From assembly GCA_900540385.1 (NCBI GenBank), contig UQFY01000001.1:11344-75343 (forward strand): a DNA stretch of 64,000 bases. Reading direction: 5' to 3'. The DNA is from an uncultured Mollicutes bacterium. Lineage in GTDB: Bacteria > Bacillota_I > Bacilli_A > RFN20 > CAG-826. Positions 26,230 through 61,458 of this stretch are shown here, one piece after another; position 1 is the stretch's first letter, and the number at the start of each line of letters is the position of its first letter. Under the pieces are notes generated by a model. That model did no database searches, was not told the origin of the DNA, and worked only from the letters and a program-made list of their open reading frames with translations. A program made the position numbers and the translations under genes.

Positions 26230-26523
26230 GCTGTCTTCACTTTATCGAAAAAGGAGAAGATATTCAAAACAAAATATTTGTTTTCTACGAAATATTTGCG
26301 AGTTCTTCATTTACTACATCATTTCATAGTGAAATGGAATTTTTTGGAAAAGCCCGTTTTTAGATGCCATATTTGTTTGGAAAAGTCTCAAAAAGGATAT
26401 AAAAACATATTGGAAAAATCCCAATGAAAGTCTGGTTATTTTATCGATTGCTGTGGGATAGAGGTCTTGCGAATCAAAGTTAGGAGTGGATTTGGAGAAA
26501 GTCATCTTTAGAGAAATACAGAC

Positions 26524-26778
26524 TTATTTGGCTAATTCCTCATAGGCTTTGCGATACTTTTTCTCCGATTCTTCCGACAATTTTTCGAGAGTTTTCCTAT
26601 CCATGTATTGGATATTGGGATTCTTGGTGATTTTGAAAGGGATGCTTTGTTCTCTAAGAGCTTGTTTGACGAACATATTGAAGGCTGCATTCATTGTGAG
26701 ACCAAATTCCGAGAATAGTTTCTCTGCCTGTTCTTTATCATTGGCGTCCATTCTAATTGTTACGTTTACGCTTGCCAT
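26524..26778 (-). CDS. RelB/DinJ-family type II antitoxin (apparently orphan)
   Basis: MASVNVTIRMDANDKEQAEKLFSEFGLTMNAAFNMFVKQALREQSIPF matches DinJ pattern; ORF 26314..26505 in toxin position shows no RelE/YafQ features. Confidence 0.65.
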   Translation of the reverse strand: MASVNVTIRMDANDKEQAEKLFSEFGLTMNAAFNMFVKQALREQSIPFKITKNPNIQYMDRKTLEKLSEESEKKYRKAYEELAK

Positions 26779-27016
26779 AGCTAATATCTCCTTTTTCTAG
26801 ATACATTATACCAGTTGATTGAAAAGGAACAAATAAAAAAGAAGTGCAACATACGTGCAAAACAAATGCTTTCGCTAAAAAGTGTAGCATCGGAACAACA
26901 AACGTCATCACTTTCGTTGTTATAAAAACAGCGATTAAAACACTAGTCGACCAGTGTTTTCATCGGAAAATATATAAAAAGCTTACTAACGGATAATTTT
27001 GACGGGAGGCTAATAA

Positions 27017-27241: not shown

Positions 27242-27396
27242 ACATGAAATGAGCTAAATGGCTTTAAATGACATCGCTCTTTTGAAATGGAGAATAGAGA
27301 TATTTTGGTGGTTCATCTCCTTTGCTAATGAATGCCATGTAACTATGTGTCACGTTGTCCATAGGAGAAAAATTTATTTGCTTGCTTGAATGTCCT

Positions 27397-27427
27397 AACT
27401 AAAATTTTTGCAAGTCCTTGCACATTT
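27397..27427. repeat. CTAACTAAAATTTTTGCAAGTCCTTGCA motif, copy downstream of COG1373 paralog 2 (internal palindrome TGCAAG-N2-CTTGCA)
   Basis: Read directly; two further copies at 28725-28757 and 28790-28822. Confidence 0.8.
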
Positions 27428-27462: not shown

Positions 27463-28713
27463 CTAGGATTTTATGGAATCCGGATCGATAAGGAATTCCT
27501 TCAAACCTAGGAAGAGAGTTCCCTTATCGTCTTTCCATTTCTTGATGTTATTTCTTACGACGATGATCTTTTTGAAACTGTCGTTGATGTGTAGCAATGA
27601 TTTTTCTTCCTGCTCTCTTTTTCCTTTTTCGTCGATAGTAAGTGCAGATTGTATGTAATATCTTTCGTATCCAAGATTACAAACAAAATCGACTTCCAGG
27701 TTCTTTCTTACGTAGTTGTTGTTCTCATTCTTTTCGCCGATTGTTACAACGCCGACGTCTACTTTATATCCACGGATTATTAATTCGTTGAAGATAATGT
27801 TTTCCATGATGTGATTTTCTTCTTGCTGCCTAAATCCCAGCCTTGCGTTTCTTAGCCCGATATCAGTGAAATAATATTTTAAAGGAGTGTCGATATATTT
27901 CTTTCCTTTGACGTCGTACCGATACGCTTTCTGTAGTAAAAAAGAGTCGGCACAACAATCCAAATACTGCTTTATCGTGTTGGGCGCCACATCGATGTTT
28001 TTAATGGATTTGAATGAATTTGATAGCTTGTTTGGATTCGTCAATGACCCGACGCTCGAAGAGACGATGTTCAAAACGTCTTCTAGAACTTCGGTGTTCC
28101 TGATGTTGTTACGATTGACGATGTCTTTAATATAGGTCTCAGTGAATAGATTTTCTAAATAATTGATCTTTTGTTCGTCACTCTTGCAGGTTAAAAGGTA
28201 AGGCATCCCCCCAAACATTGAATATTCATTCCACGCGTCATCAAAATCCATTTTGCAATAATCGAAATATTCTTTGAAAGACAGTGGTGATAGATAGATT
28301 TGATCACCTCTTCCTCTAAATTCCGTGATAATGTCTGAAGAAAGGAATTTTGCGTTGCTTCCTGTCACATACACATCGACATTTTTAATGTGGAGGAAAG
28401 AATTCAGGACGCTTTCAAAGTCGTGAACAAACTGTACCTCGTCTAAAAGAATATAGTATTTACCATTGTCGATAATTTGATTACGGACATATTCATATAA
28501 ATAATCCGGATTTTGGAATTTGATGTTTGATCTGTCGTCTAACTGCAAGGCGATTATATGGGATTTATCGACGCCGTTTTCTAGTAGATAGTTATAGAAT
28601 ATTTCGAATAAAAGGTATGATTTACCGCATCTTCTGATGCCAGTGATTACTTTTATCATCCCGTTCCCCATTCGGTCGATGAGCTTTTTTAGATAATCAT
28701 TTCTTTTAATCAT
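27463..28713 (-). CDS. AAA+ ATPase with DUF4143 domain (COG1373 family), paralog 2
   Basis: P-loop VITGIRRCGKSYLLFE; C-terminal VDFV box. Confidence 0.85.
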   Translation of the reverse strand: MIKRNDYLKKLIDRMGNGMIKVITGIRRCGKSYLLFEIFYNYLLENGVDKSHIIALQLDDRSNIKFQNPDYLYEYVRNQIIDNGKYYILLDEVQFVHDFESVLNSFLHIKNVDVYVTGSNAKFLSSDIITEFRGRGDQIYLSPLSFKEYFDYCKMDFDDAWNEYSMFGGMPYLLTCKSDEQKINYLENLFTETYIKDIVNRNNIRNTEVLEDVLNIVSSSVGSLTNPNKLSNSFKSIKNIDVAPNTIKQYLDCCADSFLLQKAYRYDVKGKKYIDTPLKYYFTDIGLRNARLGFRQQEENHIMENIIFNELIIRGYKVDVGVVTIGEKNENNNYVRKNLEVDFVCNLGYERYYIQSALTIDEKGKREQEEKSLLHINDSFKKIIVVRNNIKKWKDDKGTLFLGLKEFLIDPDSIKS

Positions 28714-28724
28714 GGCCTTCTCCT

Positions 28725-28822
28725 AACTAAAAATTTTGCAAGTTCTTGCATAAATATTATACAGCATGACGTTGATAGTAACGATTAATAAATAAAACTT
28801 TTGCAAGTTCTTGCATTTTTTA
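28725..28822. repeat. two copies of the (CTAACTAAAA)ATTTTGCAAGTTCTTGCA motif upstream of COG1373 paralog 2
   Basis: ctaactaaaaattttgcaagttcttgcataaat and aaaacttttgcaagttcttgcatttttt read directly. Confidence 0.8.
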
Positions 28823-29896: not shown

Positions 29897-30106
29897 GTGG
29901 CCATTCTCTTTGGCAAAGAAAAGACAAGGGAATATTCCGGTATAACGAAAAACTTCTTTGACGAATATTTTAAGGACAGAAAGGTTGCTTGCGCTTACAA
30001 ACTTGGGAAAATCAAAGTATACGATGAGCCAAAGGCTTTAACGGAATTTGGTTTAAGAGTTGCCCCTCAACATTTGCTTATGCAAAATAACTTTACCCCT
30101 TTTTAA
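29897..30106 (+). pseudogene. truncated duplicate of the 3' half of the ASCH-domain gene at 32226..32597
   Basis: Protein REYSGITKNFFDEYFKDRKVACAYKLGKIKVYDEPKALTEFGLRVAPQ nearly identical to C-terminus of 32226..32597 product; DNA 29921-30201 parallels 32430-32700. Confidence 0.75.
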
Positions 30107-30166
30107 AGGATTATTATTCGCACTTATAACAAAAGCCTCCAGTTCCCTCGAGGCAATCTATCTATT

Positions 30167-30201
30167 TGGTGCGTCTGGCAGGAATTGAACCTGTATGAGT
30201 C
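30167..30201 (-). repeat. 35-nt partial copy of the tRNA-like 3'-end element, bracketed by CTATTTGG direct repeats
   Basis: tggtgcgtctggcaggaattgaacctgtatgagtc preceded by hairpin gcctccagttccctcgaggc; reverse complement ends ...GGTTCAATTCCTGCCAGACGCACCA. Confidence 0.8.
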
Positions 30202-30375
30202 CGCTTTATCTATTTGGACGATTGATTATTTGATATACTTATAAGCGCCGTTTTTCATAACCAACAATAGAGTTTCGGTTGTTAAATAGTAGTTTTAATG
30301 AATATCGCATGCAGACTCATTTTTATTTATTTGAATATTAGGTTTAAAAATTTAAATGTAAGGGGGTAAGTGAAT

Positions 30376-32229: not shown

Positions 32230-32597
32230 AAAAAATAATAATTTCAATCAATCCAGAACACGTGAATAACATCATAAACGGAACAAAAAAATACGAATAT
32301 CGTACCAAGGCGGCCAAGAAGGACGTCAATAAACTGATCATTTACGAAACCACGCCAATCAAAAAAGTAGTTGCCGAAGCCGAGATTGTCGAGGTGCTTG
32401 CTCTTGATCCAAATGCCCTTTGGGAAAAGACAAGGGAATATTCCGGTATAACGAAAAACTTCTTTGACGAATATTTTAAGGACAGAAAGGTTGCTTACGC
32501 TTACAAACTTGGGAAAATCAAAGTATATGATGAGCCAAAGACCTTAACGGAATTTGGTTTAAGAGTTGCCCCTCAATCATTTGCTTATGCAAAATAG
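32226..32597 (+). CDS. ASCH (PUA-like) domain protein
   Basis: MKKIIISINPEHVNNIINGTKKYEYRTKA typical ASCH N-terminus; overlaps upstream gene stop by 4 nt. Confidence 0.7.
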   Translation: MKKIIISINPEHVNNIINGTKKYEYRTKAAKKDVNKLIIYETTPIKKVVAEAEIVEVLALDPNALWEKTREYSGITKNFFDEYFKDRKVAYAYKLGKIKVYDEPKTLTEFGLRVAPQSFAYAK

Positions 32598-32673
32598 CTT
32601 TTGTCCCTTTCAAATGAATTATTATTTGCACTTATAACAAAACCTCCAGCTCCCCGGAGGCAATCTATCTATT

Positions 32674-32754
32674 TGGTGCGTCTGGCAGGAATTGAATCTG
32701 CATGAGCTGCCTCGTTAGATCCTAAGTCTCACACAGTCCTTTCTTTCGTTTGGA
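32674..32754 (-). repeat. ~80-nt partial copy of the tRNA-like 3'-end element with preceding terminator hairpin
   Basis: tggtgcgtctggcaggaattgaatctgcatgagctgcctcgttagatcctaagtctc... aligns to first ~95 nt of the full copies; hairpin cctccagctccccggagg at 32643-32660. Confidence 0.8.
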
Positions 32755-39068: not shown

Positions 39069-39096
39069 GCCTTGAAGATATTCTTCTCCCCAAGGC
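39069..39096. terminator. bidirectional terminator hairpin GCCTTG...CAAGGC between metallophosphoesterase gene and repeat copy C
   Basis: acaaaaaaGCCTTGaagatattcttctccCCAAGGCaagtttcttatatttt read directly. Confidence 0.55.
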
Positions 39097-39102: not shown

Positions 39103-39505
39103 CTTATATTTTTGGTGCGCCTGGCAGGAATTGAACCTGTATGAGTCGCCTCATTAGATCCTAAGTCCTACATAGGGGGCTTCTTTCGTTTGGCTCGCTA
39201 AGGAACACGGAAGTGGAATCAGACGCACAGGAGGAAATTTGTTGCCAGTCCAAAGTAAGAAAAAGAATGCCAATCAATAGCGTACATTGGCTTTTGCGGA
39301 CGAGCTGCGGACGGAAGCGGACGGCCATGGCAAGCCTTATTTTAGACCTGCAGATTGATGGTGTTTCACCAGTCGGAACCGCCTTCGTTCCTGCAAGCAT
39401 TATAACAAAACAAAATGCGAATACAATAGGAAAAAACAAAGATTTCATCGAACTTTTTTCAATGCCCGGATAAGATTCTGTCGGGTTCTTTTTAAGGTAT
39501 GCGGA
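39103..39505 (-). repeat. ~400-bp GC-rich repeat, copy C; minus-strand 3' end is tRNA-like (T-arm CAGG-UUCAAUU-CCUG, acceptor CAGGCGC, A, CCA); candidate structured ncRNA
   Basis: Identical to 44296-44690 over ~350 bp, similar to ~390; reverse complement of 39103-39216 gives GCGUCUG...ACAGGUUCAAUUCCUGCCAGGCGCACCA with 7/7 pairing between ends including one G-U; internal GNRA hairpin AUGAG-GCGA-CUCAU. Confidence 0.85.
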
Positions 39506-39658
39506 CGCATCGGTTTAGCAAAAATGATGTCATTGTTTTAAATATCATCTCCCCTTTTTCAACTTAAGAATAGAAATATAAAAATCGGTTTCTTCGATGC
39601 CCCATCATAATCCTGCTATAATAATGTGAGCAATAAACATATAAGGAGCATAATCATC

Positions 39659-41566: not shown

Positions 41567-42295
41567 GGATCTGAAACTGATTATAAAGAAGCATTCAGAG
41601 CTTTAGAATCTCCATGGATATAAGTATGGCTGAAGTTTTAGTGCACAGTTATTTTAACTACATTCTAGAACCCTAGAAATTAGTGACTAAACCCGCAACA
41701 TCCTGCCGGCAAGATTTGAACCCCACCAGCAATTAAGGTGGTTTTGTTTCAATTGGGGATGCTATTTAACGACGTATACCCTGGAAGGAGTCGAAAACGG
41801 CAATACGACCAACGGGGATGTATCCGTATCCTGGGAAGACGATGATGTTTCGAAGATTGTCTATTCCCTTGATGGAGGAGAGGGAATTCTATTTGAAAAC
41901 TGCGCTCTCTTCGACAAAGAGGTAAAGTATGTTGTAAAGGTGGTCGATAAGCTAGGAAATGAGACCTTAAAACCTTCACTATCGATAAGACTGTCGATCA
42001 CTCTGTGGCTACTTCGGACGGATATCGATTTTTGTTGTCTACTCGTCGATCTCTTTTCGTAGCACCTTATTCCATGCGGCGAGACCCTCCACGGATTTAT
42101 AGTTCTTATCAAACTGGGAGGTGGTTAGCTTCATTTCGGAGCTGAGCGCCTTTAAACACTGGTTGATGTCTACCAGTAGTGTTTTTTTGAACTCTTTTTC
42201 GCCTTCAAGACCGATCTTCAGTCCGAAACTATCTGCTATATACCGTCATCTCCTTGTAGATGGCATGAAAAAAACACCTTTTCACCGAGAAATTG

Positions 42296-42316
42296 GGACG
42301 AAACCGTCCGAAGTTT
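42296..42316. repeat. hairpin motif GGACGAAACCGTCCGAA downstream of COG1373 paralog 3
   Basis: Read directly; second copy at 43687-43708. Confidence 0.8.
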
Positions 42317-42394
42317 TCGGTGGGAGCCTTCCTGATGGTACGAAAAAGGAGTGTCCCTGAAAGGCCACTCCTCGTAGACATATGAGTTATTTTG

Positions 42395-43678
42395 TCAGAA
42401 CAATTCTACCCGGCCAAGCAGCAGGTCGATCAGATTGCAGTGGAAGATGCCGTTGTCGTCATAAAAATTGTGCTGCACATCCATGCGAACGATAATCTTT
42501 TTGAAGAAATCCTTGGTAAGCATCAGCGATGCCAGTTCGGAAAATTCCTTTTTATCGGTATCCATGCGGAAAGCGGACTGAATATAGATTTTTTTATCCG
42601 CATCGTTTACCACAAAGTCGATCTCTTTCTGAACCTTTCTGTCGCCCGTGCGGTCGCAAACCACACCGACATCAACGGAGTACCCGCGTCGCAGAAGTTC
42701 GTTATAGACCATGTTTTCCATGATATGACCGGGATCGTATTGGCGGTAATTCAGCCGTGCGTTCCGAAGCCCGATATCTGTATAGTAGTATTTGTTCGGA
42801 TATTTGAAATAGGTCTTTCCTTTGACATCATATCGCTTTGCCATTGAAATGAGAAAAGAGTCGATAACATACTGCACATAGTTTGAAACCATCGCAGGAT
42901 TGATTTTTTCGTTCTTCATGGACGCGATGGCGTTTGCGATATTGGTCGGATTCGTCAGCGAACTGATCTGCGAAGCAAGGAAGTCCAGAATATCATTTAG
43001 AACATCCTCGCGCTCGATGCCGTTTCGCTCCACAATATCCTTAACATACAATTCGTTGTAGAGGGAGGTCAGATAATCCTTCTTATCTTTGTCATCCTCC
43101 AGTGCTAAAAGTCTCGGCATACCGCCATAGAGCATATAGGTATCCAGCGCTTTTCGCTCGTCGCCGCCCACGGCAGAATAAAACTCCGCAAATGACAAAG
43201 GGAACACGTGGATCTGTGTAGCACGACCGCGAAACTCTGTTGCGATATCTTTTGACAACCCTTTGGAGTTACTGCCGGTGACATAAACATCAAGGTTTTT
43301 ATATGCCTTGAGTTCGTTCAGCATATCGTAGATGGTAACCTCGATGCCACCGTTTTCCTTGTCCACTACTTTTGTGGTGAGCTGCACCTCATCAATGAAC
43401 AGATAGAATTTTTCATCCTTCCTGCCCTGGACGGCGTTTTCTACATATTCGCACAAAGTGATCGGATTCCTGAGCTTATAGTACCGCCGCTGGTCCAGTT
43501 CGATTTTCAAAATATGATCTTCCGAAACGTTCTGCGAAAGAAGATACTCGAAAAACAGATCGAAAAGCAGTACGGACTTGCCGCATCTGCGTATGCCTGT
43601 GACGACCTTTATCTCGCCGTTCCACATACTGTGGATCAGTCTGTTCATATAGGAATCGCGTTTAACCATATATTTCAC
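42395..43678 (-). CDS. AAA+ ATPase with DUF4143 domain (COG1373 family), paralog 3, in a GC-richer patch
   Basis: VVTGIRRCGKSVLLFDLF P-loop; C-terminal EIDFVV box. Confidence 0.85.
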   Translation of the reverse strand: MKYMVKRDSYMNRLIHSMWNGEIKVVTGIRRCGKSVLLFDLFFEYLLSQNVSEDHILKIELDQRRYYKLRNPITLCEYVENAVQGRKDEKFYLFIDEVQLTTKVVDKENGGIEVTIYDMLNELKAYKNLDVYVTGSNSKGLSKDIATEFRGRATQIHVFPLSFAEFYSAVGGDERKALDTYMLYGGMPRLLALEDDKDKKDYLTSLYNELYVKDIVERNGIEREDVLNDILDFLASQISSLTNPTNIANAIASMKNEKINPAMVSNYVQYVIDSFLISMAKRYDVKGKTYFKYPNKYYYTDIGLRNARLNYRQYDPGHIMENMVYNELLRRGYSVDVGVVCDRTGDRKVQKEIDFVVNDADKKIYIQSAFRMDTDKKEFSELASLMLTKDFFKKIIVRMDVQHNFYDDNGIFHCNLIDLLLGRVELF

Positions 43679-43686
43679 CTCGTACT

Positions 43687-43708
43687 TAGGACGAAACCGT
43701 CCGAACTT
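43687..43708. repeat. hairpin motif GGACGAAACCGTCCGAA upstream of COG1373 paralog 3
   Basis: Read directly. Confidence 0.8.
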
Positions 43709-44295
43709 CTATGTGTAATATACCACGATTTTCGAAAAACATTAAGACTATACGAAAAAAGCTCACAAAGAAGTTACGACGGAAATGGGCTTAGTTCGAG
43801 GTGAAACTGCCGGATATGGGTCAAATGCCGTCCGGGATAATATCGTCGATATGATGCTCTCGTGCCGGGGCGTCCTGCCCGTTATACCGCTTGTGGCACT
43901 CCCATAAGTTCAAAAGCAGGGCAAACGGCATCAGACACGCCTCATCCTGCGACCGATGAAGGTGATCAATTTTACGGTAGCGATATTGATCGGTTTTATA
44001 TTAGCACCACCATTCCTCTCAAGATTCTCGTCAAGGAAGGCCGCTAGAAGGCAGCAAAGCGCCTGATTGAGGAACTTTCCGCTCCGGGAGCCTTCAACCT
44101 CGAATCCGTCAATGCGACAAATCAGAGATTGACTGTGGGTTTAAATTATATGAAGCCGCTCCATATCTTTTCAAAATCGCTGATTCTTGTTATTACATTT
44201 GCATCGGTGACCTGAAAATAGTGGTTTCATCATTTTTAATACTGTATTCCTGTAATTAAATCCCCTTCATTTGAAGGGATTGCTATCTATCTATT

Positions 44296-44690
44296 TGGTG
44301 CGCCTGGCAGGAATTGAACCTGTATGAGTCGCCTCATTAGATCCTAAGTCCTACATAGGGGGCTTCTTTCGTTTGGCTCGCTAAGGAACACGGAAGTGGA
44401 ATCAGACGCACAGGAGGAAATTTGTTGCCAGTCCAAAGTAAGAAAAAGAATGCCAATCAATAGCGTACATTGGCTTTTGCGGACGAGCTGCGGACGGAAG
44501 CGGACGGCCATGGCAAGCCTTATTTTAGACCTGCAGATTGATGGTGTTTCACCAGTCGGAACCGCCTTCGTTCCTGCAAGCATTATAACAAAACAAAATG
44601 CGAATACAATAGGAAAAAACAAAGATTTCATCGAACTTTTTTCGATGCTCGGATAGGGTTCTGTCGTGTTCTATTCAAGGCATGCGGATG
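44296..44690 (-). repeat. ~400-bp GC-rich repeat with tRNA-like 3' end, copy D, preceded by terminator hairpin ATCCCCTTCATTTGAAGGGAT
   Basis: Identical to copy C over ~350 bp. Confidence 0.85.
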
Positions 44691-44890
44691 CATCGGATTT
44701 TGGATGGGGCTATCTTTTGATATACTTATAGAGGCCAAATCAATTGAGAAAAATTAATGGATGCTTTTGTGCTGACTGACCAACTTGTTGTGCATTTGGT
44801 TTAATTTGTTCCTAAGTCTTCTTCTATTAAAAAACAATTGAATGTCACAAGTCAGTAATGAACACGGTTCATTTTGAAGGGGGCTAAATC

Positions 44891-46276
44891 ATGGATTTAG
44901 AAGATAAGATAGGTCGGCAAGAATTTGTGGATAAAGTTTGTGGGGTGATTGATTCACTGAAAAAGGACAACCACATCTGCCTGGCAATTAATGGGTCCTG
45001 GGGAAGCGGGAAGTCGTTCGTTTTAGGAATGATTGAAGATAAGCTTTCACAAAAGCCTGAATATATCGCCATCAAATATGATGCCTGGGAAAACTCTTTT
45101 TATTCCGATCCGCTTATATCTATCCTTTCCTGCATCATTGATGAAGTAGAGGAAAAGTTCCCTTTGCCACCTGGAAAAGAGAATATCAAGCAAGCCGTAA
45201 AGGCTGGCTTTGAAGCTATTGCCGAGGTAACGCCTAAACTACAAAATCTGAAGGCTATCATCAAAGGATTGACTGCCGTTATAAAAAGCTTTCAACATCC
45301 CATTGATACGGCAGATCTTGATGAATTCAAATCGTACAAGAAGCTTTTGAAGGAAACGAAAGAACTTCTGAATAAACTTGCGTCATCGGAAGATGGCGCA
45401 AGTCAAAGCAAACTTATCATCCTTGTCGATGAGATTGATCGTTGCTTGCCTGATGAGCAATTGAAGATATTGGAACGGCTTCACCATTTGTTTGATGTGA
45501 AGAACTGCGCGGTCATCGTTACGATGAATCAAAGCTCTGTGGCAAAAACAGTGGAAACAGTCTATGGAGTTGATGGCTATGAATATCTTCGCAAGTTCTT
45601 TGACTTCACCTTTAGACTCAGCGTGTCTGCGAAAGATTATCTTAGAAATCTACTGAATGATTGCACCAAGATTTTTGTGAAAATGGGCGTGCCCGAAGAC
45701 AAGGCCGAAATTCCCACCAAGCTGGCTTGCCAATGCTTGCTGTACGGGGATAAAAAAGTCCTGGATAAAACAGATAACAGAGAGCTTACCCGATATTACG
45801 AAGGGGTAATGAATGTTTGCAATGACTTTGGATGGGAGAGAATAAGAAATCCCTATTATGTTTTCTTTGTTTTGGTGGCTTTATACATTCGAAGAGTAAT
45901 TGATCCCTCATTTTTAGATACAGAGATGATTTTGTCTAATCAGGCTAAATTTTCAAATGATTTTAAAAGCCTCTCACGGGAAGAAAGAGAGATGAAAATG
46001 CCCTATTTTGATTACTTGAAGAAGCACATAGGATTCGATAGAGAAAACCCTCCAGAAGCATTCGAACAGCTTTATCGCTGGGGAGGAAGCGACATGGCTG
46101 AGTATTGCTGGACCTTTAATGAAACTATTTATTATTCTTTGGCAAAAGAAATTCCCAACAATGATTGGAGAAGATTTTACAGCCAACCGACTGTTAATCC
46201 GGATGATTGCAAAGTGTTGTGTAAGCTAATTGTCTTATATGGCGGGGAGCAACCGAATGTAGTTGATAAAAAGTGA
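44891..46276 (+). CDS. KAP-family P-loop NTPase
   Basis: LAINGSWGSGKSFVLG Walker A and LIILVDEIDRCLPDE Walker B. Confidence 0.8.
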   Translation: MDLEDKIGRQEFVDKVCGVIDSLKKDNHICLAINGSWGSGKSFVLGMIEDKLSQKPEYIAIKYDAWENSFYSDPLISILSCIIDEVEEKFPLPPGKENIKQAVKAGFEAIAEVTPKLQNLKAIIKGLTAVIKSFQHPIDTADLDEFKSYKKLLKETKELLNKLASSEDGASQSKLIILVDEIDRCLPDEQLKILERLHHLFDVKNCAVIVTMNQSSVAKTVETVYGVDGYEYLRKFFDFTFRLSVSAKDYLRNLLNDCTKIFVKMGVPEDKAEIPTKLACQCLLYGDKKVLDKTDNRELTRYYEGVMNVCNDFGWERIRNPYYVFFVLVALYIRRVIDPSFLDTEMILSNQAKFSNDFKSLSREEREMKMPYFDYLKKHIGFDRENPPEAFEQLYRWGGSDMAEYCWTFNETIYYSLAKEIPNNDWRRFYSQPTVNPDDCKVLCKLIVLYGGEQPNVVDKK

Positions 46277-46446
46277 AAACCCCAAAATTTAAGAAAATCG
46301 AGTGAAACTACCTGTCAAGTCCTGAAATTCATAACTTTTGAAACTATAATATAAGCATATTGAAGGGCCTATGGCTCCATTTGCTTACGATCATGGAGTA
46401 CGTAAGGAAACAAGACTCCTTTAAGGAAGAAATAGGAGGATTTTCT

Positions 46447-46600
46447 TATGAACTATGAGTACACAGTCTTTTCAGAGAACAACTATGGAGTTCTCAAACA
46501 GGAACTAAACGATTATGGAAGATATGGCTGGAAGCTTGTCAACGTCGTCTGGGATAATGATAATGCCTGTTTGGTTGCCGTGATGATAAGAGAAAGATAA
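46447..46600 (+). pseudogene. DUF4177-like small ORF, apparently split by a +1 frameshift at a G-run near 46498-46502
   Basis: ATG 46447 with SD aggagga gives MNYEYTVFSENNYGVLKQ; the downstream +1 frame gives ELNDYGRYGWKLVNVVWDNDNACLVAVMIRER ending at 46600; joined they match the DUF4177 pattern (M.YEY......GW.LV.V). Depends on exact G-run length at a line break, so low confidence. Confidence 0.3.
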
Positions 46601-46618
46601 GAGCAAAAAAGAAGTTGA

Positions 46619-46891
46619 TTATTCAACACTCTCTTTGCATTTTTGAATGCATTGATCATATTTTTCTTTATTAAGTTTAAGAGAAGATATTTCTTCTTCG
46701 ATGGCCTCTCTCACTGCCTGTGCAAAAAAATCAGTATCAAAGTTTTCAGCAGGACATTCACATGTAATCTGAGAAACATCAATCTTTTCGGTATCTGTAA
46801 CAAATTTCACTAATTCTGAAAGTGAAGGTGTGTTAGTTTTTAGCTTTGCTATTTGTTGGCCTTTATAAAGAATTATGATTTCATTCGCCAT
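46619..46891 (-). CDS. hypothetical 90-aa protein, last gene of the 7-gene operon, overlapping PHP-ATPase gene end
   Basis: Overlaps upstream gene by 11 nt; no recognisable motif. Confidence 0.5.
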   Translation of the reverse strand: MANEIIILYKGQQIAKLKTNTPSLSELVKFVTDTEKIDVSQITCECPAENFDTDFFAQAVREAIEEEISSLKLNKEKYDQCIQKCKESVE

Positions 46892-49232
46892 ATTTTAATA
46901 ATCTCCGTTCTATTGCACGTTTTCCGCCATCTAGAATTTTAGATATCTTATCAAGAATGTCCTTGTATTCTAGAGCGCCATATTCGTAATTAAATTCATC
47001 ATCAGCTATTTGACTACTCAAAACAACGTTTTCGGAATCGGAATTTACTACAATGTTTGCATCATGCGTTACCACAATAACTTGTCTTTTCTTTTTGAGT
47101 TCCGAGAACCAGGTTGTCAGTTGAGTATAAATTGTTTCGTTGTCTATGTTATCTTCTGGCTGATCAATAATGATAGGGTCGTTGCTTTCTTTGAAAACAA
47201 TATATTCAAGCAAAAGATTTGCTCTAGTTCCTGGAGAGACTGTTTTTAAATCTTTCTTATTGCCAAACTCATCTTGGAATATTATTTCGTTGGTCAATTC
47301 GATTTTGTAGCTCTTAAGATGGTTTAATTCATCATCTAATTCATAGTCTTTTTTTGATTCCAGAAGAACTTCGGAACAATGGTAGCAATATACCTGAATT
47401 AGTTTGAATAGGTCTGCTTTGTCTTTTCTATTTATGTAGAACGATTTCAGCTTATTTAAATCAAAATAGCTGTTAAAAACATCAAATAAGTAATCGTTTA
47501 GGTTCTGAAAATGCAGGCTTCTTTGAAAGTAAAATTTTCTAGAATTGTAACCATTACTTTCTTTTTTAGAGCATTTATTGAAATTAAAATCAAAGATGGC
47601 CAAGTAATTATTCATCAAATGAACTCTAAAATTTATTTTATCGAATTGAGATGCAAAAGATTGTTTAAAAGTTTTAATAGCATCGTCTTTCTTTTTCTTT
47701 TCTTTATTTTGCGCATTGACTTTTGCTTGATACTTATCCGGAATTAAATATCTAAGGTTTTCTAAAATAGCCTTCTTGTTAAAAGTGAAAGTAGAAGAAT
47801 AAATTGCCTGAATATACTTTATTGCTGCTTCTTTAATTTCGGGACAATCGGCCAATTCTTTCGGGACAATTTCATTATTTGTGAGTTTTGAAAACAAGTC
47901 CTGAAAATTGCTATAAGCGACTTGATTATCTTCTTTGCCTTTGGCCCACAAAGAAATTACTTTGCAATCTTGCAGATGGACTACCTTTTTATCTAAAGAT
48001 GTAATGTTCGAATTTGTGGGAGAAGTCTGTTCAAAGCAAGTGATCTTATTTAGTAAATTATTCTTTTCTTGTTCGATACTATAAGTTTCCAAAGAAGAAA
48101 ACTCATCTTTGAAATAAACCGTGGAAACCAAATCACATTTTTTACGGAATAACTCTTGTGCGTATCCCTGATTATAATAGTCAAAATGAAAATCGTGCCC
48201 TTTTAGCGGTTCGCCATTTAAGTCGGAAACACAGTATTGAAGCTTTTCCAAGTAATCAATTCGATCTGGCTGAGATTCTGTGAAAATACTATTGGACAAG
48301 GCTGGGTTTAAATAGAAAGCAGCTCCATCAATTAAGAGACTTTTTCCCGATCCTCTACCGCCAACAACAGAATTTAGACCGGGACTAAATAAAATCCTGT
48401 TATTTCCTTGAGTTATTTCTCCAATGCATTTTCCTTTCATGTCACTTGTCAGCGTTTTTCTTTTTTTGGCAATTCGGTGGCAATCAGTTCCGACTAGTCT
48501 CAAACCATTAAATGTAGGGAGGGAATTGAAATACTGCTTTGGATTGTTGAGGTAGTTTTCTAATTTTTCGAAATTGTTGGAGTCAGAAAATGATATTACT
48601 GAAACTCTGTCTCCTCTGTCGAAATCTTTTAATAGCTCAATTGCTCTTTGAACGTTGGTGTTATTTGACGCCTCCCAAAAGCAGCACATTTGATCTATGT
48701 ATTTATCTATGTTTTGCTTTGTCGACTCTTCATCCCAATTGAATTCAATTCCACGTTTGTCTTGCTTTATGAAATGTGGGCTAATCAAAAATGGAACTTT
48801 TATCTTTGTTATTAAGAAATTTAAGAAGTTGGCAAGCGTTGGAATGTGATTATTCTTAAGAAAGGAGTTTATTTTTTCGGCTTGTGTGTTTAAATCAAAC
48901 TTTTCATCGTCAAAGTAAAATATGATGTGTTTGTAATTGTCTCCGCTCTCGCCCTCTTCTAAATATAAATCTGCTTCTAACCCGATTAGCAGTTTAACGC
49001 TAGTGTTTTTTGATAGGAATTTCTTATAAACCTCCGTGCTAATTTGGTTGTGATCCGTAAAACTGATCATCTCCAAATCTGAATGCTTTGAAAACAATGT
49101 GATTAATCGACTGATGTATGCATCCACGGACATTTTTGAAAATTCATTAGACCCTTTCGGGCATAACGGGGTGTGTATATGAAGATCCCAAACAGAACCT
49201 TCATAGGCTATTGCTCTGTTAATATCTTGCAT
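46881..49232 (-). CDS. PHP-domain phosphoesterase fused to ABC-type (AAA_21/SbcC-like) ATPase
   Basis: N-terminal PHP motifs WDLHIHTP, SFTDHN, GLEAD, SPHF; P-loop VVGGRGSGKSLL; C-terminal Walker B IIIDQPEDNID and H-loop VVTHD. Confidence 0.75.
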   Translation of the reverse strand: MQDINRAIAYEGSVWDLHIHTPLCPKGSNEFSKMSVDAYISRLITLFSKHSDLEMISFTDHNQISTEVYKKFLSKNTSVKLLIGLEADLYLEEGESGDNYKHIIFYFDDEKFDLNTQAEKINSFLKNNHIPTLANFLNFLITKIKVPFLISPHFIKQDKRGIEFNWDEESTKQNIDKYIDQMCCFWEASNNTNVQRAIELLKDFDRGDRVSVISFSDSNNFEKLENYLNNPKQYFNSLPTFNGLRLVGTDCHRIAKKRKTLTSDMKGKCIGEITQGNNRILFSPGLNSVVGGRGSGKSLLIDGAAFYLNPALSNSIFTESQPDRIDYLEKLQYCVSDLNGEPLKGHDFHFDYYNQGYAQELFRKKCDLVSTVYFKDEFSSLETYSIEQEKNNLLNKITCFEQTSPTNSNITSLDKKVVHLQDCKVISLWAKGKEDNQVAYSNFQDLFSKLTNNEIVPKELADCPEIKEAAIKYIQAIYSSTFTFNKKAILENLRYLIPDKYQAKVNAQNKEKKKKDDAIKTFKQSFASQFDKINFRVHLMNNYLAIFDFNFNKCSKKESNGYNSRKFYFQRSLHFQNLNDYLFDVFNSYFDLNKLKSFYINRKDKADLFKLIQVYCYHCSEVLLESKKDYELDDELNHLKSYKIELTNEIIFQDEFGNKKDLKTVSPGTRANLLLEYIVFKESNDPIIIDQPEDNIDNETIYTQLTTWFSELKKKRQVIVVTHDANIVVNSDSENVVLSSQIADDEFNYEYGALEYKDILDKISKILDGGKRAIERRLLKYGE

Positions 49233-49255
49233 CGGTTTCTCCTGCTACGAAAGCT

Positions 49256-52117
49256 TTACTCCTTGAACTTCAGGAAACCTTTTGTAAACCCATCTGGATT
49301 AACAAACTTTTTCTCGCCGACAGCAAAACGGACGGTAAGGTATTTGTCTTTCTTATCTATATTTATGATCTCACCATCACCGAATTTGGCATGGACCACT
49401 TTTGCACCGACTACAATCTTAGAAAAGTCTATGTTCATCGCTTCTGTATAGTCGTTTACTTGTTTCAAGATAGGCTTGATAGTGGTCTTAACTTTATTAT
49501 CTACGGGTTCTGATTTATCCGCGTTAGAAGGTTCGGGCGGAATCGGAAATTCTGAGTTCTTCATGGTTGCCTGCTGGTTATAGAAGAGTTTTTCGTATTC
49601 CTCTCTTCTGATGACGGTATCCCAACCACCGATATCCTCGCTCGTGTGTTTTTCAATGCCGGTGTAGGAAAGAGAGGAATCCTCATATCTCTTGAATTTG
49701 AAGATGGCGTCGTTCATTAAGGACGAGTTGAAAACGCCAAGAGAGCAAAGGAGTTCGAAATCTTTGACATCCAGGCCTGTGACCTTCTTGAAAAGACCAG
49801 GCTCAAGCTGTGTGATGACATCTTTGAGACATCTCTCTCTGTAATCAGTGAGATACATGAAAACAGGAATTCTGGTCGCAAACTTGATGAGCTTCTCCTG
49901 GATTTCCTTTCTCTTTGATTTGTATTCCTTCTCCTCTTCGGTGAGTTCCTTCTTTTCTTTTGGAGTGAGCTTTTCGTCCCCTTCTTGCTTTGCCTTCTTG
50001 ACATGCTCGGACTTGTTGATGATGGTCTCGATATCCGAGTTCAAGGATCGGAATCCTTCAATGCTCATCAGAGCATCCAATGCGTCTTTGTTGTTCAAAA
50101 GCTTATTGAGAGTATCGTTATCGACATTGACCAAAAGAGCGGATTCCCATCTTCTCGCAAGCAATGTCGCGGAAGTGCCGGCCATAGCGATATCCAAGAC
50201 ATCCTGAGCGTTAATCTGCTTCATGGTGGAGCCATCGTAAGCGAGCACAGGAAGGAAATTGATGAATTCAGCAACTTTTTTCTCTGGATCAGAACCATCC
50301 GGATTGAGACGACAGGAATAGTCCGAAATCTGTCTCAAGGCACGGTCCAAGGCAAAATCAAAGACGTAGCATTCCTCTTTGAGGATTGTCTCGGTTCCAT
50401 TCGAATTCTTAATCGTCCATGGGGACTGGACTCTGAAAGCCGCCTGGAAATAGGTTTCTGGCGATTTCAGATTTCTCAGCATAAAGATGCCAGTCCATGG
50501 ACGGATGGTGACACCTGTTGTTAATTTTCCGCAGGTTAAAGTGATTGTCTTTTTTTCTAAGGCAGGATCCATTGACCGTTTTACTGGGTCTACAGCGGCC
50601 AGGCCAATGCCTGCCTTTGTTCCTGCACAGAGATTGATGGTGTAGTCATGATAGAAAGTGTTTTGTCTTTCTCTGAGAAGGTTGTACATGGCTTCGCAGG
50701 AAGCGACGTTAGGCAAAAACCACAAAGTGTGAGAAAGGACATTCAGAAGACGGGTATCAGAAAACGGCATCGGAGGACGCTTATCCTGACCTAATTTTAA
50801 ATCATCAATGCTGGCGGTGAGATATTGTCCTCTGATCAAATCAAGCCATTTCTGAACTTCGTTCTTGTATTTGAAGGTGGCGTTTGCTCCTTTTCCTTCT
50901 GCGGAGAAGAAGACGTTGAGATCGAATTCGTTGAATTCGCCGTCCATGGCCACCTGTTTGATGCTGTCAGGCATCTGATAGGTCATCAAAACCATTCTCG
51001 GCAAAGAAAGATATGGGTTATTGGAACCTTTCCAATTCTCTTTGGCTCTTTGCTCATCGGAATAGGTCCAGTTGTAGATTTGGTCTTCGATGAATTCTCC
51101 GCTGCTGATGGCTCTGAACGGTGTTCCGGAAAGGAAGAGATAGTAATTTGTCGTGATAGGAAGGAAGGTTTCGTTGTACGCATTGCCGGCTTCATCGTTT
51201 TGGTATTTCTCGACATCGAAATCGGCGTCCGCTTCCTCATCCGGGTTCTCGAAAAGCTTCTTTGCGTTTTCACGCCAGGCACCGAAATGATATTCGTCGA
51301 AGATGACCATATCCCAGTTTTCTGTATGGATGAATTCGTTCTTGGCTTTGATTCCGCCATTGTCGTTCGTTCCGAGAAGGTTCTGGAAGGAACCGAAAAC
51401 GACAATAGGTTTGGATTTGTCACAGGCTTCAAATTCTTTGTCCAAGCGGGTGCTCGAATCTTTGGCATCGTTATCGGAAACGAACTGCCATCCTTCGAAA
51501 TCAATATGTGTGAGCAGATCCTCTTTCCAAGCAGATTCGACTGCTGGTTTGAAAGTCAGGATAAGGATTCTCTTTAAACCCATGCTCTTTGCCAGCTCAT
51601 AGGAAGCAAAAGTCTTTCCAAAACGCATCTTGCAGTTCCATAGGAACTTCGGTGCCTTATTCGGCTCTTCCTCTTTGGCTTTCTTGAAGTATTCTTCCGT
51701 GTATTGGACGGCTCTAACCTGTTCAGGTCTCATCTTGAATGTTGCCGTTCTTCCGCGGGTAGTGATGATGCCGGCACTGACTTCCTCGATGGCCTTCTCT
51801 ACATCTTCTTTAGTGCATTTGAACCATTCGTTCTTGTCTTCTCCGTTATAGAGCTGTTTGAATCCTTCTCTCTTTAAAATCGCATGGATATCATGATCCA
51901 TGAAGCACGTTCCATCGGAACGCACAGCAGATCTAACTAATTCGGTCTTATGTTTCAAACCACTGGTATGAAGCTGTTCGTTGATTCTGTCTTCGTAGTC
52001 CCCACGATCGGTGTATCCTATTTTCAGATATCCCTTATGAGAAGGAACATCGGGTAAGCTATAGGCATATATGGTCGGCTTGACCTCAGGTCTTTGCTTG
52101 AAAAATTCCGTTGCCAT
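49256..52117 (-). CDS. T5orf172 (GIY-YIG-superfamily, MUG113-like) domain fused to SF2 DEAD/DEAH-type helicase with C-terminal small beta-rich domain
   Basis: N-terminal TIYAYSLPDVPSHKGYLKIGYTDRGDYEDRINEQL fits the T5orf172 pattern; Walker A MRFGKTF and DEAH-like VIFDEYHF; 4-nt ATGA overlap with upstream MTase gene. Confidence 0.7.
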   Translation of the reverse strand: MATEFFKQRPEVKPTIYAYSLPDVPSHKGYLKIGYTDRGDYEDRINEQLHTSGLKHKTELVRSAVRSDGTCFMDHDIHAILKREGFKQLYNGEDKNEWFKCTKEDVEKAIEEVSAGIITTRGRTATFKMRPEQVRAVQYTEEYFKKAKEEEPNKAPKFLWNCKMRFGKTFASYELAKSMGLKRILILTFKPAVESAWKEDLLTHIDFEGWQFVSDNDAKDSSTRLDKEFEACDKSKPIVVFGSFQNLLGTNDNGGIKAKNEFIHTENWDMVIFDEYHFGAWRENAKKLFENPDEEADADFDVEKYQNDEAGNAYNETFLPITTNYYLFLSGTPFRAISSGEFIEDQIYNWTYSDEQRAKENWKGSNNPYLSLPRMVLMTYQMPDSIKQVAMDGEFNEFDLNVFFSAEGKGANATFKYKNEVQKWLDLIRGQYLTASIDDLKLGQDKRPPMPFSDTRLLNVLSHTLWFLPNVASCEAMYNLLRERQNTFYHDYTINLCAGTKAGIGLAAVDPVKRSMDPALEKKTITLTCGKLTTGVTIRPWTGIFMLRNLKSPETYFQAAFRVQSPWTIKNSNGTETILKEECYVFDFALDRALRQISDYSCRLNPDGSDPEKKVAEFINFLPVLAYDGSTMKQINAQDVLDIAMAGTSATLLARRWESALLVNVDNDTLNKLLNNKDALDALMSIEGFRSLNSDIETIINKSEHVKKAKQEGDEKLTPKEKKELTEEEKEYKSKRKEIQEKLIKFATRIPVFMYLTDYRERCLKDVITQLEPGLFKKVTGLDVKDFELLCSLGVFNSSLMNDAIFKFKRYEDSSLSYTGIEKHTSEDIGGWDTVIRREEYEKLFYNQQATMKNSEFPIPPEPSNADKSEPVDNKVKTTIKPILKQVNDYTEAMNIDFSKIVVGAKVVHAKFGDGEIINIDKKDKYLTVRFAVGEKKFVNPDGFTKGFLKFKE

Positions 52118-52120
52118 CGC

Positions 52121-53674
52121 TTAGTCCTCCATCGATTCGACGTTGTTTTCGATGAAATCTATTTCTTTTTGATTAAGACCGTATTTCTCATAGAGTTCTT
52201 TGTCGGTCCACGGCTTAGAAAAGTCTTGGAGAGGGACGTATTGATAAACTCCGGAAGCTGCTCCTTGGTCATTTTTCTTCACACCAACAAGTGCACGGAA
52301 AAATTTAGTTTTTATGTAAGACCAGCAATTCATCATTTCTTTTTCTGTTTTGAATCCACCAATAACAACGAAAGTTTCTGTACATAGTTCTCCTGGTTTA
52401 GCAAAAACAGGTTCAGAGAATTTTTCTCCAAATAAACCTGCCCCTTGGTTTCGTGCCATAAACATTTTGTAGTCGTTAATGAAATCTTTCTTTGGAATAG
52501 GATAATTAGATGGAATGTATCGTATTGCTCTTTTTGCACCATCTAATCCATAAATAGAATAGCCATTTTTAAATGGAGTTTCACTTACTGCAGGAAGCCC
52601 ATATTTTGAGGGGTTTTTGAACATGTCGCCACGAAAACCAAACGGTTTTTGTGGCGACACATGTAAGGAAAACGATTCTTCATTAAATTTCTTTACTTTT
52701 CTATAAATCGAAACCAGTTCATTATTTCTAATGAAAATATCACATCCATCTTCTAACATTGTTCTATCAGTTTCGGTCGCGACTTGGTTTCCGTTGTCGT
52801 TGATGATATGTACGACAGGGCTTGTCTTATCTCTATCCCAAAGGAAGTAATTAACACCACCTTTGATCTCAACACCTGTAAAACACAGGGATGCGTCTTT
52901 GAAATCGTGGATGATGGACATTCTGTTGTCATGGAGCATTTCGTTTCTAAAATCGTCAAGGCCCTTGCCGCCTGTCATCCAACGGGAAGGTACAATCATG
53001 GAGAGATATCTTGGCTTGAGCTTGATGGCTTGCTGAATGAACTTTTGATAAATGGGGCTGGCACTAGCTTGGGCACCTCCGTCATTGAGCTGATAAGGTG
53101 GGTTACTGATAATGACATCGAACTTCATCTTGAATACCTCCTCCACGTTCATTCCATGAATGAACTCATATGCATGTGTTTCTAAATCTTCTCTTTTTGT
53201 TCCACCCAATTCCTGTTCGCTTGCTCCGCAGTAAACACATCTTCCGTTTTTGAACGTGTGGCTGCAGTTCTTGAATCGGATGTTTCCGTCCGCATTTTCG
53301 AAATGTGTGATAGAGAACTCGCCGTTTGCGTATTTAGAACAATAGACACCGCGTCTTGAAAGAAGACTGGTCAGTTCCGTGATTGCGATTCCATAAAGCT
53401 GTTTATGGAAGATATGGTCGACTCTATCCTGAAGATCAGGGATTTGGTTTTCTAGTCCTTTGAGGAGTCTTTTTGCGATTTCTCTCAGAAAAACGCCAGT
53501 CTTGCAGGCAGGATCAAGGAATGTCGTATCCGGATTCTCGAACAGCTCTTGAGGGAGCATGTCTAACATCTGGTTGACGACATCCGGGGAAGTGAAGACT
53601 TCATCGTTGGAGAGATTGGCCAAACAGCTCAATACGTCAGGGTTATAAACCTTGCTGAATAAATCATCACTCAT
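52121..53674 (-). CDS. N6-adenine DNA methyltransferase (gamma-type motif order, Eco57I/TaqI-like) with Cys-cluster insertion
   Basis: Motif I TFLDPACKTGVFL, motif IV VIISNPPYQ; CSHTFKNGRCVYCG between them. Confidence 0.85.
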   Translation of the reverse strand: MSDDLFSKVYNPDVLSCLANLSNDEVFTSPDVVNQMLDMLPQELFENPDTTFLDPACKTGVFLREIAKRLLKGLENQIPDLQDRVDHIFHKQLYGIAITELTSLLSRRGVYCSKYANGEFSITHFENADGNIRFKNCSHTFKNGRCVYCGASEQELGGTKREDLETHAYEFIHGMNVEEVFKMKFDVIISNPPYQLNDGGAQASASPIYQKFIQQAIKLKPRYLSMIVPSRWMTGGKGLDDFRNEMLHDNRMSIIHDFKDASLCFTGVEIKGGVNYFLWDRDKTSPVVHIINDNGNQVATETDRTMLEDGCDIFIRNNELVSIYRKVKKFNEESFSLHVSPQKPFGFRGDMFKNPSKYGLPAVSETPFKNGYSIYGLDGAKRAIRYIPSNYPIPKKDFINDYKMFMARNQGAGLFGEKFSEPVFAKPGELCTETFVVIGGFKTEKEMMNCWSYIKTKFFRALVGVKKNDQGAASGVYQYVPLQDFSKPWTDKELYEKYGLNQKEIDFIENNVESMED

Positions 53675-54359
53675 AATCTTTTAACCTCTTGTAGTTCATT
53701 ACGCTCCGATGGACGAATTTGCCTTCTCCGTTGTTATTGTCGAAGAGGGTTTCCTGTCCATTTGTGTCTTGCTTAGGATTTTCGTTTTGCTTAAGAATCT
53801 CATCGAATGTGTATTCGCTTCGGGATAGCTGAGGCCCGGTTACGAATCCCCATTCGCTGAAGAGAATCGGATCTTCCTTGTCGTTTCCATTTTCATCGAC
53901 TTCATGGAGCGTCAAAGCATTCCCGCAGACGATATTCTTGGAAAGGATGAAACGGATGGAATCCCGCATATCCTCGCTGCATTCCTTTTTGCAGACGGCT
54001 TTATATTGCTTGTCCCAGATTTTGAAAAGACGCTCACGGCACGCAATCACATTGTCCATCATAATGTCCACACCATAAAGGCTAGATACCGCAAGCAAAG
54101 AGTTCTTTTCAAAATCCATGACACTTCTTCTGTATTTTTTCTTCACAACAGCCAGTTTTCTGTCGAGAATCTCTGCTAAGAAGTTTCCGTCTCCACAGGC
54201 AGGCTCCAGGAATCTGGAATCGATTCTCTGTGTTTCGTCGTTCACAAGATCACACATTGCTTTGACTTCACGCTCATTGGTGAAGACCTCGCCGTGGTCG
54301 ACGACACGCTTTCTGGATTTGATCTGCTTGTTTGCTTTCTGTTTCGTTTCTTTTGGCAT
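53667..54359 (-). CDS. methyltransferase-like N-terminal paralog (motif I present, no NPPY)
   Basis: EVFTNEREVKAMCDLV...FLEPACGDGNFL parallels the N-terminus of the downstream N6A-MTase but the 230-aa ORF lacks a (N/D)PP(Y/F) motif; overlaps MTase start by 8 nt. Confidence 0.55.
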   Translation of the reverse strand: MPKETKQKANKQIKSRKRVVDHGEVFTNEREVKAMCDLVNDETQRIDSRFLEPACGDGNFLAEILDRKLAVVKKKYRRSVMDFEKNSLLAVSSLYGVDIMMDNVIACRERLFKIWDKQYKAVCKKECSEDMRDSIRFILSKNIVCGNALTLHEVDENGNDKEDPILFSEWGFVTGPQLSRSEYTFDEILKQNENPKQDTNGQETLFDNNNGEGKFVHRSVMNYKRLKDYE

Positions 54360-54574: not shown

Positions 54575-54635
54575 AAGTATACCATTTTCTTCTCATTCTG
54601 TCGATGAATAGGACGATAAAAGTTTCGGCTTCTCC

Positions 54636-61445: not shown

Positions 61446-61458
61446 AGGAGGAAAAAGA

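Follow-up and report, generated by a model that had tools for sequence, protein, structure and literature searches.

A repeat of about 400 bp recurs among the defense genes of the 64,000-nt stretch of DNA analyzed here (the window), and its minus strand ends like a tRNA. What is this repeat, and why does it stand where it does? An earlier note on the sequence had proposed three identities: att sites repeated by serial integration at a tRNA-like gene, a family of tRNA-like structured noncoding RNAs, or the boundary elements of a cassette-exchange system. We conclude that each copy is very probably the left junction of a conjugative element (ICE) that inserted serially into the anticodon loop of tRNA-Leu(UAG), leaving blocks of defense genes behind. 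The first identity is thereby borne out by the tRNA-Leu identity of one part of the repeat, by unoccupied sites in relatives, by the presence of both junction types and by an integrase. The copies do delimit blocks of defense genes, as the note had said.

Extent of the copies and identity of their tRNA part

The 27-mer TGGTGCGYCTGGCAGGAATTGAAYCTG occurs four times on the plus strand of the window, at 30167 (copy A), 32674 (copy B), 39113 (copy C) and 44296 (copy D), where the number of matches expected from shuffles is 0, and the repeat is accordingly real (Table 1). Copies C and D match without a single mismatch over 350 nt (39111-39460 and 44294-44643), in agreement with the roughly 350 bp given earlier; 10 mismatches follow beyond 39460/44643, up to ~39514/44697, where the C-D similarity ends. 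Several details of the first description needed adjustment. The start it gave for copy C, 39103, lies ~2 to 10 nt too far left. The element is enriched in GC as claimed, but only modestly (0.46 versus 0.395 window-wide). For the partial copies, the extent of A (30167-30201) and the start of B (32674) were right, but B reaches ~32860. The minus strand does end in ...ACAGGTTCAATTCCTGCCAGGCGCACCA as described, and hairpins do follow copies C and D, but the T-run at D is poor. The hairpin after copy C belongs to the tRNA gene as its terminator and at the same time faces a convergent 572-aa gene.

Table 1. Features of the repeat copies and of the element sequences around them, in window coordinates
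Feature	Position	Strand	Remarks
Copy A, 35-nt tRNA-Leu 3'-end remnant (acceptor and T arm only)	30167-30201	-	Cut inside the variable arm; e1 deleted
Copy B, tRNA-Leu 3' half of another sequence type	32674-32728	-	Acceptor CAGACGC
Copy B, whole	32674-~32860	-	tRNA part plus ~130 nt of diverged, truncated e1
Hairpin and T-run just 3' of the copy C tRNA end	39069-39096	-	Terminator-like
Copy C, second displaced 3' part of tRNA-Leu(UAG)	39113-39167	-	55 nt; intact tRNA at the matching site in L038 and L013
Copy C, e1, left arm of the decayed ICE	39168-39513	-	Equal to D e1 up to 39460 in the window
Remnant of the ICE 1625-aa backbone gene	41781-42021	+	blastn, 79% identity over 242 nt to L067 6596-6837
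Integrase pseudogene fragment, codons 32-71	44012-44131	+	80% identical, in-frame stop; tblastn of P0173 against the window, E = 1e-13
Hairpin 3' of the copy D tRNA end	44262-44279	-	Terminator-like, T-run weak
Copy D, displaced 3' part of tRNA-Leu(UAG)	44296-44350	-	55 nt; equal to the 3' part of intact tRNA-Leu(tag) in L019, L038 and L013
Copy D, e1, noncoding ICE left arm	44351-44696	-	Contiguous with ICE cargo and backbone in the window and in L040-L051
GTCCGC(A/T) heptamers in copy D e1	44478-44505	-	
Diverged heptamer ATCCGCA, far edge of copy D e1	44683-44689	-	
Variable defense cargo by e1	44697-56709		KAP NTPase, PHP/SMC-like 783-aa protein, T5orf172-helicase, Eco57I/MmeI-type methylase genes, Schlafen-type helicase (Pfam)
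ICE backbone, start	56710-64000	+	Runs past the window end
Sigma-70 region-4 regulator	56920-57393	+	
MobL relaxase	57925-59229	+	
Coupling protein, VirD4-type	59226-61445	+	
1612-aa gene, start only in the window	After the coupling protein, to 64000	+	

The 55-nt part of the repeat was identified by a 26-mer scan of one genome per species, which returned many unrelated tRNA-Arg genes and three contigs with tRNA-Leu(tag), all three holding an intact 84-nt gene (L013, L019 and L038). Copies C and D equal the 3' 55 nt of that tRNA at every base. These comprise the last 2 nt of the 5' strand of the anticodon stem, the loop CTTAGGA, the 3' strand of the stem, the variable arm with its GCGA loop, the T arm, the acceptor strand and CCA. 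Only these 3' 55 nt match tRNA-Leu(tag), and the complete cloverleaf of a functional tRNA, with 5' acceptor strand, D arm and anticodon arm, is not present; a search of the window for the tRNA-Leu 5' half was negative. The DNA after the intact tRNA is 99.3% identical to window positions 44350 to 42727 (site D) in L019, and 87 to 92% identical to positions 39167 to 37315 (site C) in L038 and L013. These are unoccupied sites: the relatives hold the whole tRNA exactly at the window's D and C, with the same downstream DNA. The promoter of the intact host tRNA reads TATAAT.

The left part of the array and the history of copy C have features of their own. To the left of copy A, positions 29918-30150 repeat 32424-32660. 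The duplication extends over ~310 nt (29918-30230 versus 32424-32736), with 97% identity in its first 153 nt (29918-30070 and 32424-32576), and spans the 3' end of a small ASCH-domain gene together with the terminator of that gene and the tRNA remnant, which places copy A beside a truncated version of the gene preceding copy B. In strain L040, which is 99.8% identical to the window, the ~90 nt beside the tRNA half of copy C are of the B type, whereas in the window they are of the D type. The identity of C and D in the window thus reflects recent recombination or gene conversion.

The conjugative element, its arms and its right end

The ~346-nt remainder of each full-length copy, here called e1, is a conserved noncoding arm. 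A metagenome scan with the junction pattern yielded 12 more loci, and 12 distinct full-length e1 copies share a mean identity of 90%, with indels of 1, 1, 2-3, 5 and 11 nt. Because these indels shift the frame, the 95-aa minus-strand ORF and the 86-aa plus-strand ORF of e1 are not genes; no gene with a product like that of the 95-aa ORF is on record. The break point in the metagenome loci always falls at GATCCTAAGTC, within the anticodon loop region. To its left the tRNA half belongs to at least six T-arm/acceptor sequence types, with a non-tRNA-like sequence in two loci, and in three loci RNase III, a chromosomal gene, lies beyond the tRNA half. To the right of e1 the genes change from locus to locus (AAA_14/DUF4143 ATPases, Schlafen-type helicases, GmrSD and SIR2), and in other samples the same e1 and cargo are also joined to a tRNA-Leu(UAG) 3' half whose sequence differs. 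A blastn search of the element against annotated plasmids and phages gave no match, and viral contigs scanned for e1 and the tRNA 5' half held neither.

A few loci depart from this pattern. Where one e1 copy meets the tRNA half in L044 (7636-7660), the core reads GATAATAAGTC, a variant of GATCCTAAGTC. In L060 (~6955-7085) and L064 (~2080-2112, both in oriented coordinates) no tRNA half stands left of the core; the L060 sequence there carries GTCCGC repeats resembling the ICE right arm and may be attP-like or an ICE-ICE junction. In L065 (oriented 10040-10790) e1 is truncated to ~110 nt and directly followed by a CRISPR array (repeat GTATAGAACCCATCTTGTTTAACACACCTAGCAAAC); beyond the tRNA half, on its far side, there is a 1094-aa ORF.

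The loci that link e1 to cargo and backbone came from searches for exact matches to the KAP NTPase and to the coupling protein, and copy D is the left junction of an ICE. The same backbone is found in L049 from window position 56710 onward, next to other cargo, so the region adjoining e1 is a cargo hot spot. Further along, in related contigs, the backbone encodes Fic/RelB, a T4SS pilin, DUF8208 and a VirB4-like ATPase. At the boundary of cargo and backbone lies a GC-rich noncoding stretch of 176 nt (56710-56886), which is kept in L049 and in the units of L042 and L044, both without backbone; Rfam gave no match to this boundary, which could be a regulatory or oriT-like region.

No intact recombinase or recombinase domain was found among the 39 window ORFs scanned. 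A walk along the backbone via the DUF8208 homologue led to a 452-aa tyrosine recombinase (P0173/P0121; PF00589 at 84.9 bits). P0173 lies on the same 156,580-nt contig (ERZ919633 k127_24554) as L040; the contig of P0121 stops 62 nt past the integrase, and the right end was read from the cluster member P0173. A 114-aa protein whose gene immediately precedes that of the integrase is a candidate excisionase. An integrase, which the earlier note had named as something to look for, is thus present beyond the window in near-identical contigs, and only a 40-codon pseudogene fragment of one lies inside it.

In the loci around P0173 the right end is ordered as follows: integrase, two to three variable genes, a terminator, a complete 85-nt tRNA-Leu(tag), a ~280-nt arm, GGTTCCTAAGTC, the host tRNA 5' half with its native promoter, and chromosomal genes. 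The ICE-borne 85-nt tRNA lies ~280 nt inside the right junction in L071 to L076 (at 11880-11964 in L073 and at 7432-7516 in L071, whose integrase is 88% identical and whose right end has the same arrangement), and it is the only tRNA that ARAGORN detects in L072 to L076. In L071, L073 and L074, all related contigs outside the window, the core at the right end of the ICE gives way to the 5' half of the host tRNA and its promoter, and the promoter flank there equals the flank before the intact tRNAs; in L019, the 110 nt upstream of the intact tRNA are identical to the right-junction flank. Both junctions and the intact tRNA have only the 9-nt core TCCTAAGTC in common (44342-44350 in copy D, plus strand). 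The host tRNA is therefore cut in two by integration without being restored. In its anticodon loop the ICE tRNA reads TTTAGGA (U32) versus CTTAGGA (C32) in the host, one mismatch to the core that might stop the ICE from recombining with its own tRNA. The predicted restored attB reads ...TTAGATCCTAAGTCTAACGTG..., and the predicted attP junction (...GCAGGTTCCTAAGTCCTACATAG...) is absent from all 77 loci examined and from the viral contigs. L044 is circularly permuted, a permutation that a tandem array explains equally well.

The DNA past the ICE right end in L072 (13230-15354) is 72% identical to window positions 10327-12449 (605-aa and glycosyltransferase genes) and does not match the HAD-hydrolase flank of other loci; nor was a 5' half of the host tRNA detected past that right end. 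The locus suggests another insertion context or a rearrangement.

Short heptamers occur in both arms of the element. The e1 arm holds three units spaced 10 to 11 nt apart, the third reading GTCCGCT, and one more at its far edge that is exact in copy C and reads ATCCGCA in copy D. Of the six GTCCGCA matches that the window contains, five fall within e1 of C and D, on the strand opposite to that of the right arm, where L073 has seven on the plus strand within 170 nt (0 of 200 shuffles reached the count of this locus). One 11-nt heptamer unit is missing from e1 of L061 and L062, and within e1 the GTCCGC repeats show no higher conservation than the sequence around them. In lambda-type attP sites, the usual arrangement of tyrosine integrase arm-type sites is one of repeated short sites in opposite orientation on either side of the core. 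From their layout, the repeats in both arms are putative binding sites of the integrase or an excisionase.

Blocks between the copies

The block between copies C and D contains two pieces of the ICE, a remnant of the 1625-aa backbone gene and a fragment of the integrase gene (Table 1); the latter is also 86 to 87% identical by blastn to the integrase genes of L067 to L077. Both stand in ICE order and orientation. This makes the C-D block a decayed member of the same ICE family and copy C the left junction of that older element. A 3.3-kb version of the block in L055 consists of tRNA half, e1, ATPase and intact tRNA, and lacks both recombinase and GmrSD; its e1 is joined directly to the point of the 41781-42021 remnant. 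Compared with this unit, the window's version has one extra gene by e1, that for GmrSD, and an exact-match look-up of the GmrSD protein returned no contig. In L044 and L042, the cargo from KAP NTPase to Schlafen-type helicase occurs without backbone as a 12.7-kb unit bounded on the right by a tRNA half and e1, an arrangement that, as far as sequence comparison goes, fits a deletion. The C-D and B-C blocks and L055 are all bounded by att sites and lack integrase and transfer genes, two of the features of a CIME, which by definition would also be excised in trans by a related ICE.

Other observations concern the genes around these blocks. Positions 26478-26861, left of copy A, show 78% DNA identity to the Fic/RelB toxin-antitoxin region of the ICE (L067 8136-8522) and may be another ICE remnant. 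AAA_14/DUF4143 ATPase genes lie at 21274-22626, 27463-28713 and 42395-43678, all on the minus strand; this type is the commonest gene beside e1 elsewhere. The latter two are bracketed by short repeats of their own, TTTCACC...GGACGAAACCGTCCGAA... and TCCTAACTAAAATTTTTGCAAGTCCTTGCA (42280-42322, 43673-43715 and 43761-43803; 27393-27422, 28721-28750 and 28786-28815), and the second motif, TCCTAACTAAAATTTTTGCAAGTCCTTGCA, also occurs in L043. These ATPase genes may be mobile or coregulated units. Arrays of short repeats of the TCTAGAAA type (15555-15695 and 17179-17284) lie on either side of a Schlafen AlbA_2/HATPase_c_4 gene (15709-17184).

Competing explanations and known systems

In the mechanism that we favor, the 55 nt would be the displaced 3' half of a previously resident tRNA and the ~346-nt e1 the ICE's own attachment-site arm. 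The 452-aa tyrosine integrase, whose gene lies at the opposite end of the ICE, would recombine the 9-nt core, that is, the anticodon loop plus 2 nt of stem, which element and tRNA have in common. Since the core alone is shared, the host gene is split and not rebuilt, and the ICE brings a complete tRNA-Leu(UAG) of its own, which presumably compensates for the loss. New ICEs would insert repeatedly into whichever intact tRNA-Leu stands at the growing end, and older elements would decay, to leave a row of tRNA 3' halves A, B, C and D with defense cargo between them; this order of insertion and decay is the one we infer from the layout. Several observations weigh against the explanation. Integrase, ICE tRNA and right junction were read from near-identical or related contigs and not from the same molecule as the window, and copies C and D share one type of tRNA half, unlike what simple serial insertion of an ICE with a different tRNA would leave. 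The shared type requires gene conversion or an ancestor with this type. The missing circular junction among the 77 loci and the viral contigs, the ordinary conservation of the GTCCGC repeats in e1, and the cargo block of L044 and L042 without backbone, which a deletion would fit, also count against it.

The tRNA-like end of the repeat could also be taken for part of a gene for a structured RNA of 135 to 400 nt with its own acceptor stem, or for a divergent tmRNA. T arm, 3' acceptor strand and CCA are all perfect, and the GCGUCUG that lies 113 nt upstream is able to pair with that acceptor strand, as the earlier note had pointed out. GCGTCTG does occur at 39231-39237, but it reads CCGTCCT in 9 of 12 e1 variants, and the pairing is a matter of chance. 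The internal GNRA hairpin, which the earlier note had mentioned, is the variable arm of tRNA-Leu with its GCGA loop, next to the T arm. Moreover, the tRNA identity stops at the anticodon loop and the 5' half is found elsewhere in relatives; the ARAGORN and Rfam checks that had been suggested made no call (0 tRNA and 0 tmRNA genes in the window; nothing in Rfam at the gathering score, and nothing around copy C at E up to 10); and the minus-strand RNA folds with weak z-scores of -2.2 (133 nt) and -1.25 (408 nt). We therefore give a tRNA-like RNA gene next to no probability. A tmRNA, one-piece or permuted, had come into question through the ~400-nt size and the similar 3' end, and was rejected on the missing ARAGORN and Rfam calls and the discovery of the intact tRNA-Leu. 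Equally negligible is a plain segmental duplication or generic dispersed repeat with no tie to a mobile element. The identity of C and D over 350 nt and the ~230-nt duplication shared by A and B to their left would suit it, but the copies in the window and in 12 unrelated metagenome contigs start at the same base of the tRNA-Leu anticodon loop, relatives have intact tRNAs at the matching sites, and the window holds no further copy elsewhere.

Two further readings deserve more weight. Besides being a recombination arm, e1 might carry a promoter or encode a small RNA on the tRNA strand, starting after the extended -10 box TGnTATAAT (~39401-39393) and ending at a GCCAAT...ATTGGC hairpin with T-run (~39285-39252), or its promoter might read over the circle junction into the ICE tRNA. 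Copy D e1 holds the extended -10-like TGTTATAAT together with several hairpins, the box is kept in 10 of 12 e1 copies, including that of L059 with its diverged upstream sequence, the best-conserved stretch of e1 comes right after it and is closed by the hairpin and T-run, and the host tRNA promoter is likewise TATAAT. However, promoter and terminator scans called neither the -10 box nor the hairpin, covariation among the 12 copies is nearly nil (RNAalifold covariation term -0.62, with 4 of 68 pairs compensated) and Rfam gave no match, which makes an e1 transcript quite improbable. It is unlikely, though worth more consideration, that the blocks are live, nonautonomous CIME-like cassettes moved in trans by the ICE integrase, with the array serving as an exchangeable store of defense genes. 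The complete 3.3-kb unit of L055 without recombinase, the 12.7-kb cargo-only unit of L044 and L042 with the same boundaries, the single gene (GmrSD) by which the window unit exceeds that of L055 at e1, and the exchange of e1 segments between strains speak for such movement. Yet the units lack the GTCCGCA-rich right arm of an intact ICE, the integrase and backbone pseudogene fragments between C and D point to decay by deletion, and no circular form was seen among the 77 loci or the viral contigs. The dedicated cassette-exchange system of the earlier note is superfluous, as at least one of its "cassettes" is a decayed ICE with pseudogene fragments, and its tRNA-like noncoding RNA is contradicted by the end of the tRNA likeness at the anticodon loop and the empty ARAGORN and Rfam searches.

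Returning to serial insertion, the structure is of a known kind: att remnants left by elements that integrate serially and site-specifically at a tRNA gene, accrete in tandem and decay. One less common feature is the replacement of the host tRNA, instead of its restoration, by an ICE-borne copy. ICEBs1 of Bacillus subtilis is a tyrosine-integrase ICE that resides in a tRNA-Leu gene and is flanked on either side by direct repeats of tRNA sequence. The present ICE likewise has a tyrosine integrase and uses a tRNA-Leu gene; unlike ICEBs1, which inserts at the 3' end of trnS-leu2, restores the gene and has a relaxase of another family, it has its crossover in the anticodon loop and leaves the gene split. 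Williams (2002; Nucleic Acids Res 30:866) reportedly distinguished an anticodon-loop class of tRNA integration sites, exemplified by phage HP1 in tRNA-Leu. The crossover in a 7-nt anticodon loop flanked by the symmetric anticodon stem agrees with that class, whereas in its classical members attP includes the 3' part of the tRNA and the gene is restored.

The row of units also has parallels. ICESt1 and ICESt3 of Streptococcus thermophilus are associated with tandem accretion of ICEs and CIMEs. As in that accretion, elements here stand in a row at one att site with att repeats between them, some without recombination and transfer genes; unlike there, the defective units carry ICE pseudogene fragments and their cargo is almost entirely antiphage defense. 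The term tandem accretion appears in a review (PMC5812530). Like an integron array, the locus is a row of gene blocks with a repeated recombination site beside an integrase-bearing platform. Unlike an integron, its repeat is a tRNA half plus an element arm and not an attC hairpin, its blocks are multigene units of 2.5 to 12 kb with their own promoters, and the integrase is not of the IntI type adjacent to the array; an IntI gene and attI by an attC array were looked for in vain, with no recombinase domain in the 39 window ORFs and a repeat derived from a tRNA.

Taken together, these results (i) remove a candidate "new tRNA-like RNA family" and put a mapped mechanism in its place; (ii) illustrate how a defense island would be built in an uncultured gut bacterium from one ICE family at one tRNA gene, by serial insertion followed by decay; and (iii) provide exact junction sequences with which such elements can be found and delimited in metagenomes. 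The repeat itself is ordinary and explained; the tRNA-replacement strategy of the ICE and the resulting defense array are of moderate interest.

The closest described behavior to that of this ICE, in that integration is nonrestoring and the element carries a tRNA, is the tRNA-dependent lysogeny of mycobacteriophages such as Fionnbharth (Cluster K4/L), as set out in the relevant passages of Guerrero-Bustamante and Hatfull (2024; PMC10865867). We tentatively suggest, as a conceivable reading more than a probable one, that this ICE family is its conjugative equivalent, destroying the host tRNA-Leu(UAG) and substituting its own copy, with serial capture and decay producing a self-extending antiphage array. 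The conserved outward promoter of e1, itself putative, could drive the ICE tRNA in the excised circle. If the suggestion is true, loss of the ICE without precise excision would be harmful, and every resident ICE would offer the next one a fresh tRNA target. A text search of the literature returned no paper applying "tRNA-dependent lysogeny" to conjugative elements. As far as the passages on the mycobacteriophages go, the short core (9 nt here) and the element-borne tRNA, here tRNA-Leu(UAG), are shared features; the likeness lies in sequence, and the dependence on the tRNA is putative. Unlike those phages of actinobacteria, the element described here is conjugative, with a MobL relaxase, a coupling protein and T4SS genes, and resides in a gut bacterium, and it is possibly the first nonphage case of tRNA-splitting integration compensated by an element-borne tRNA.
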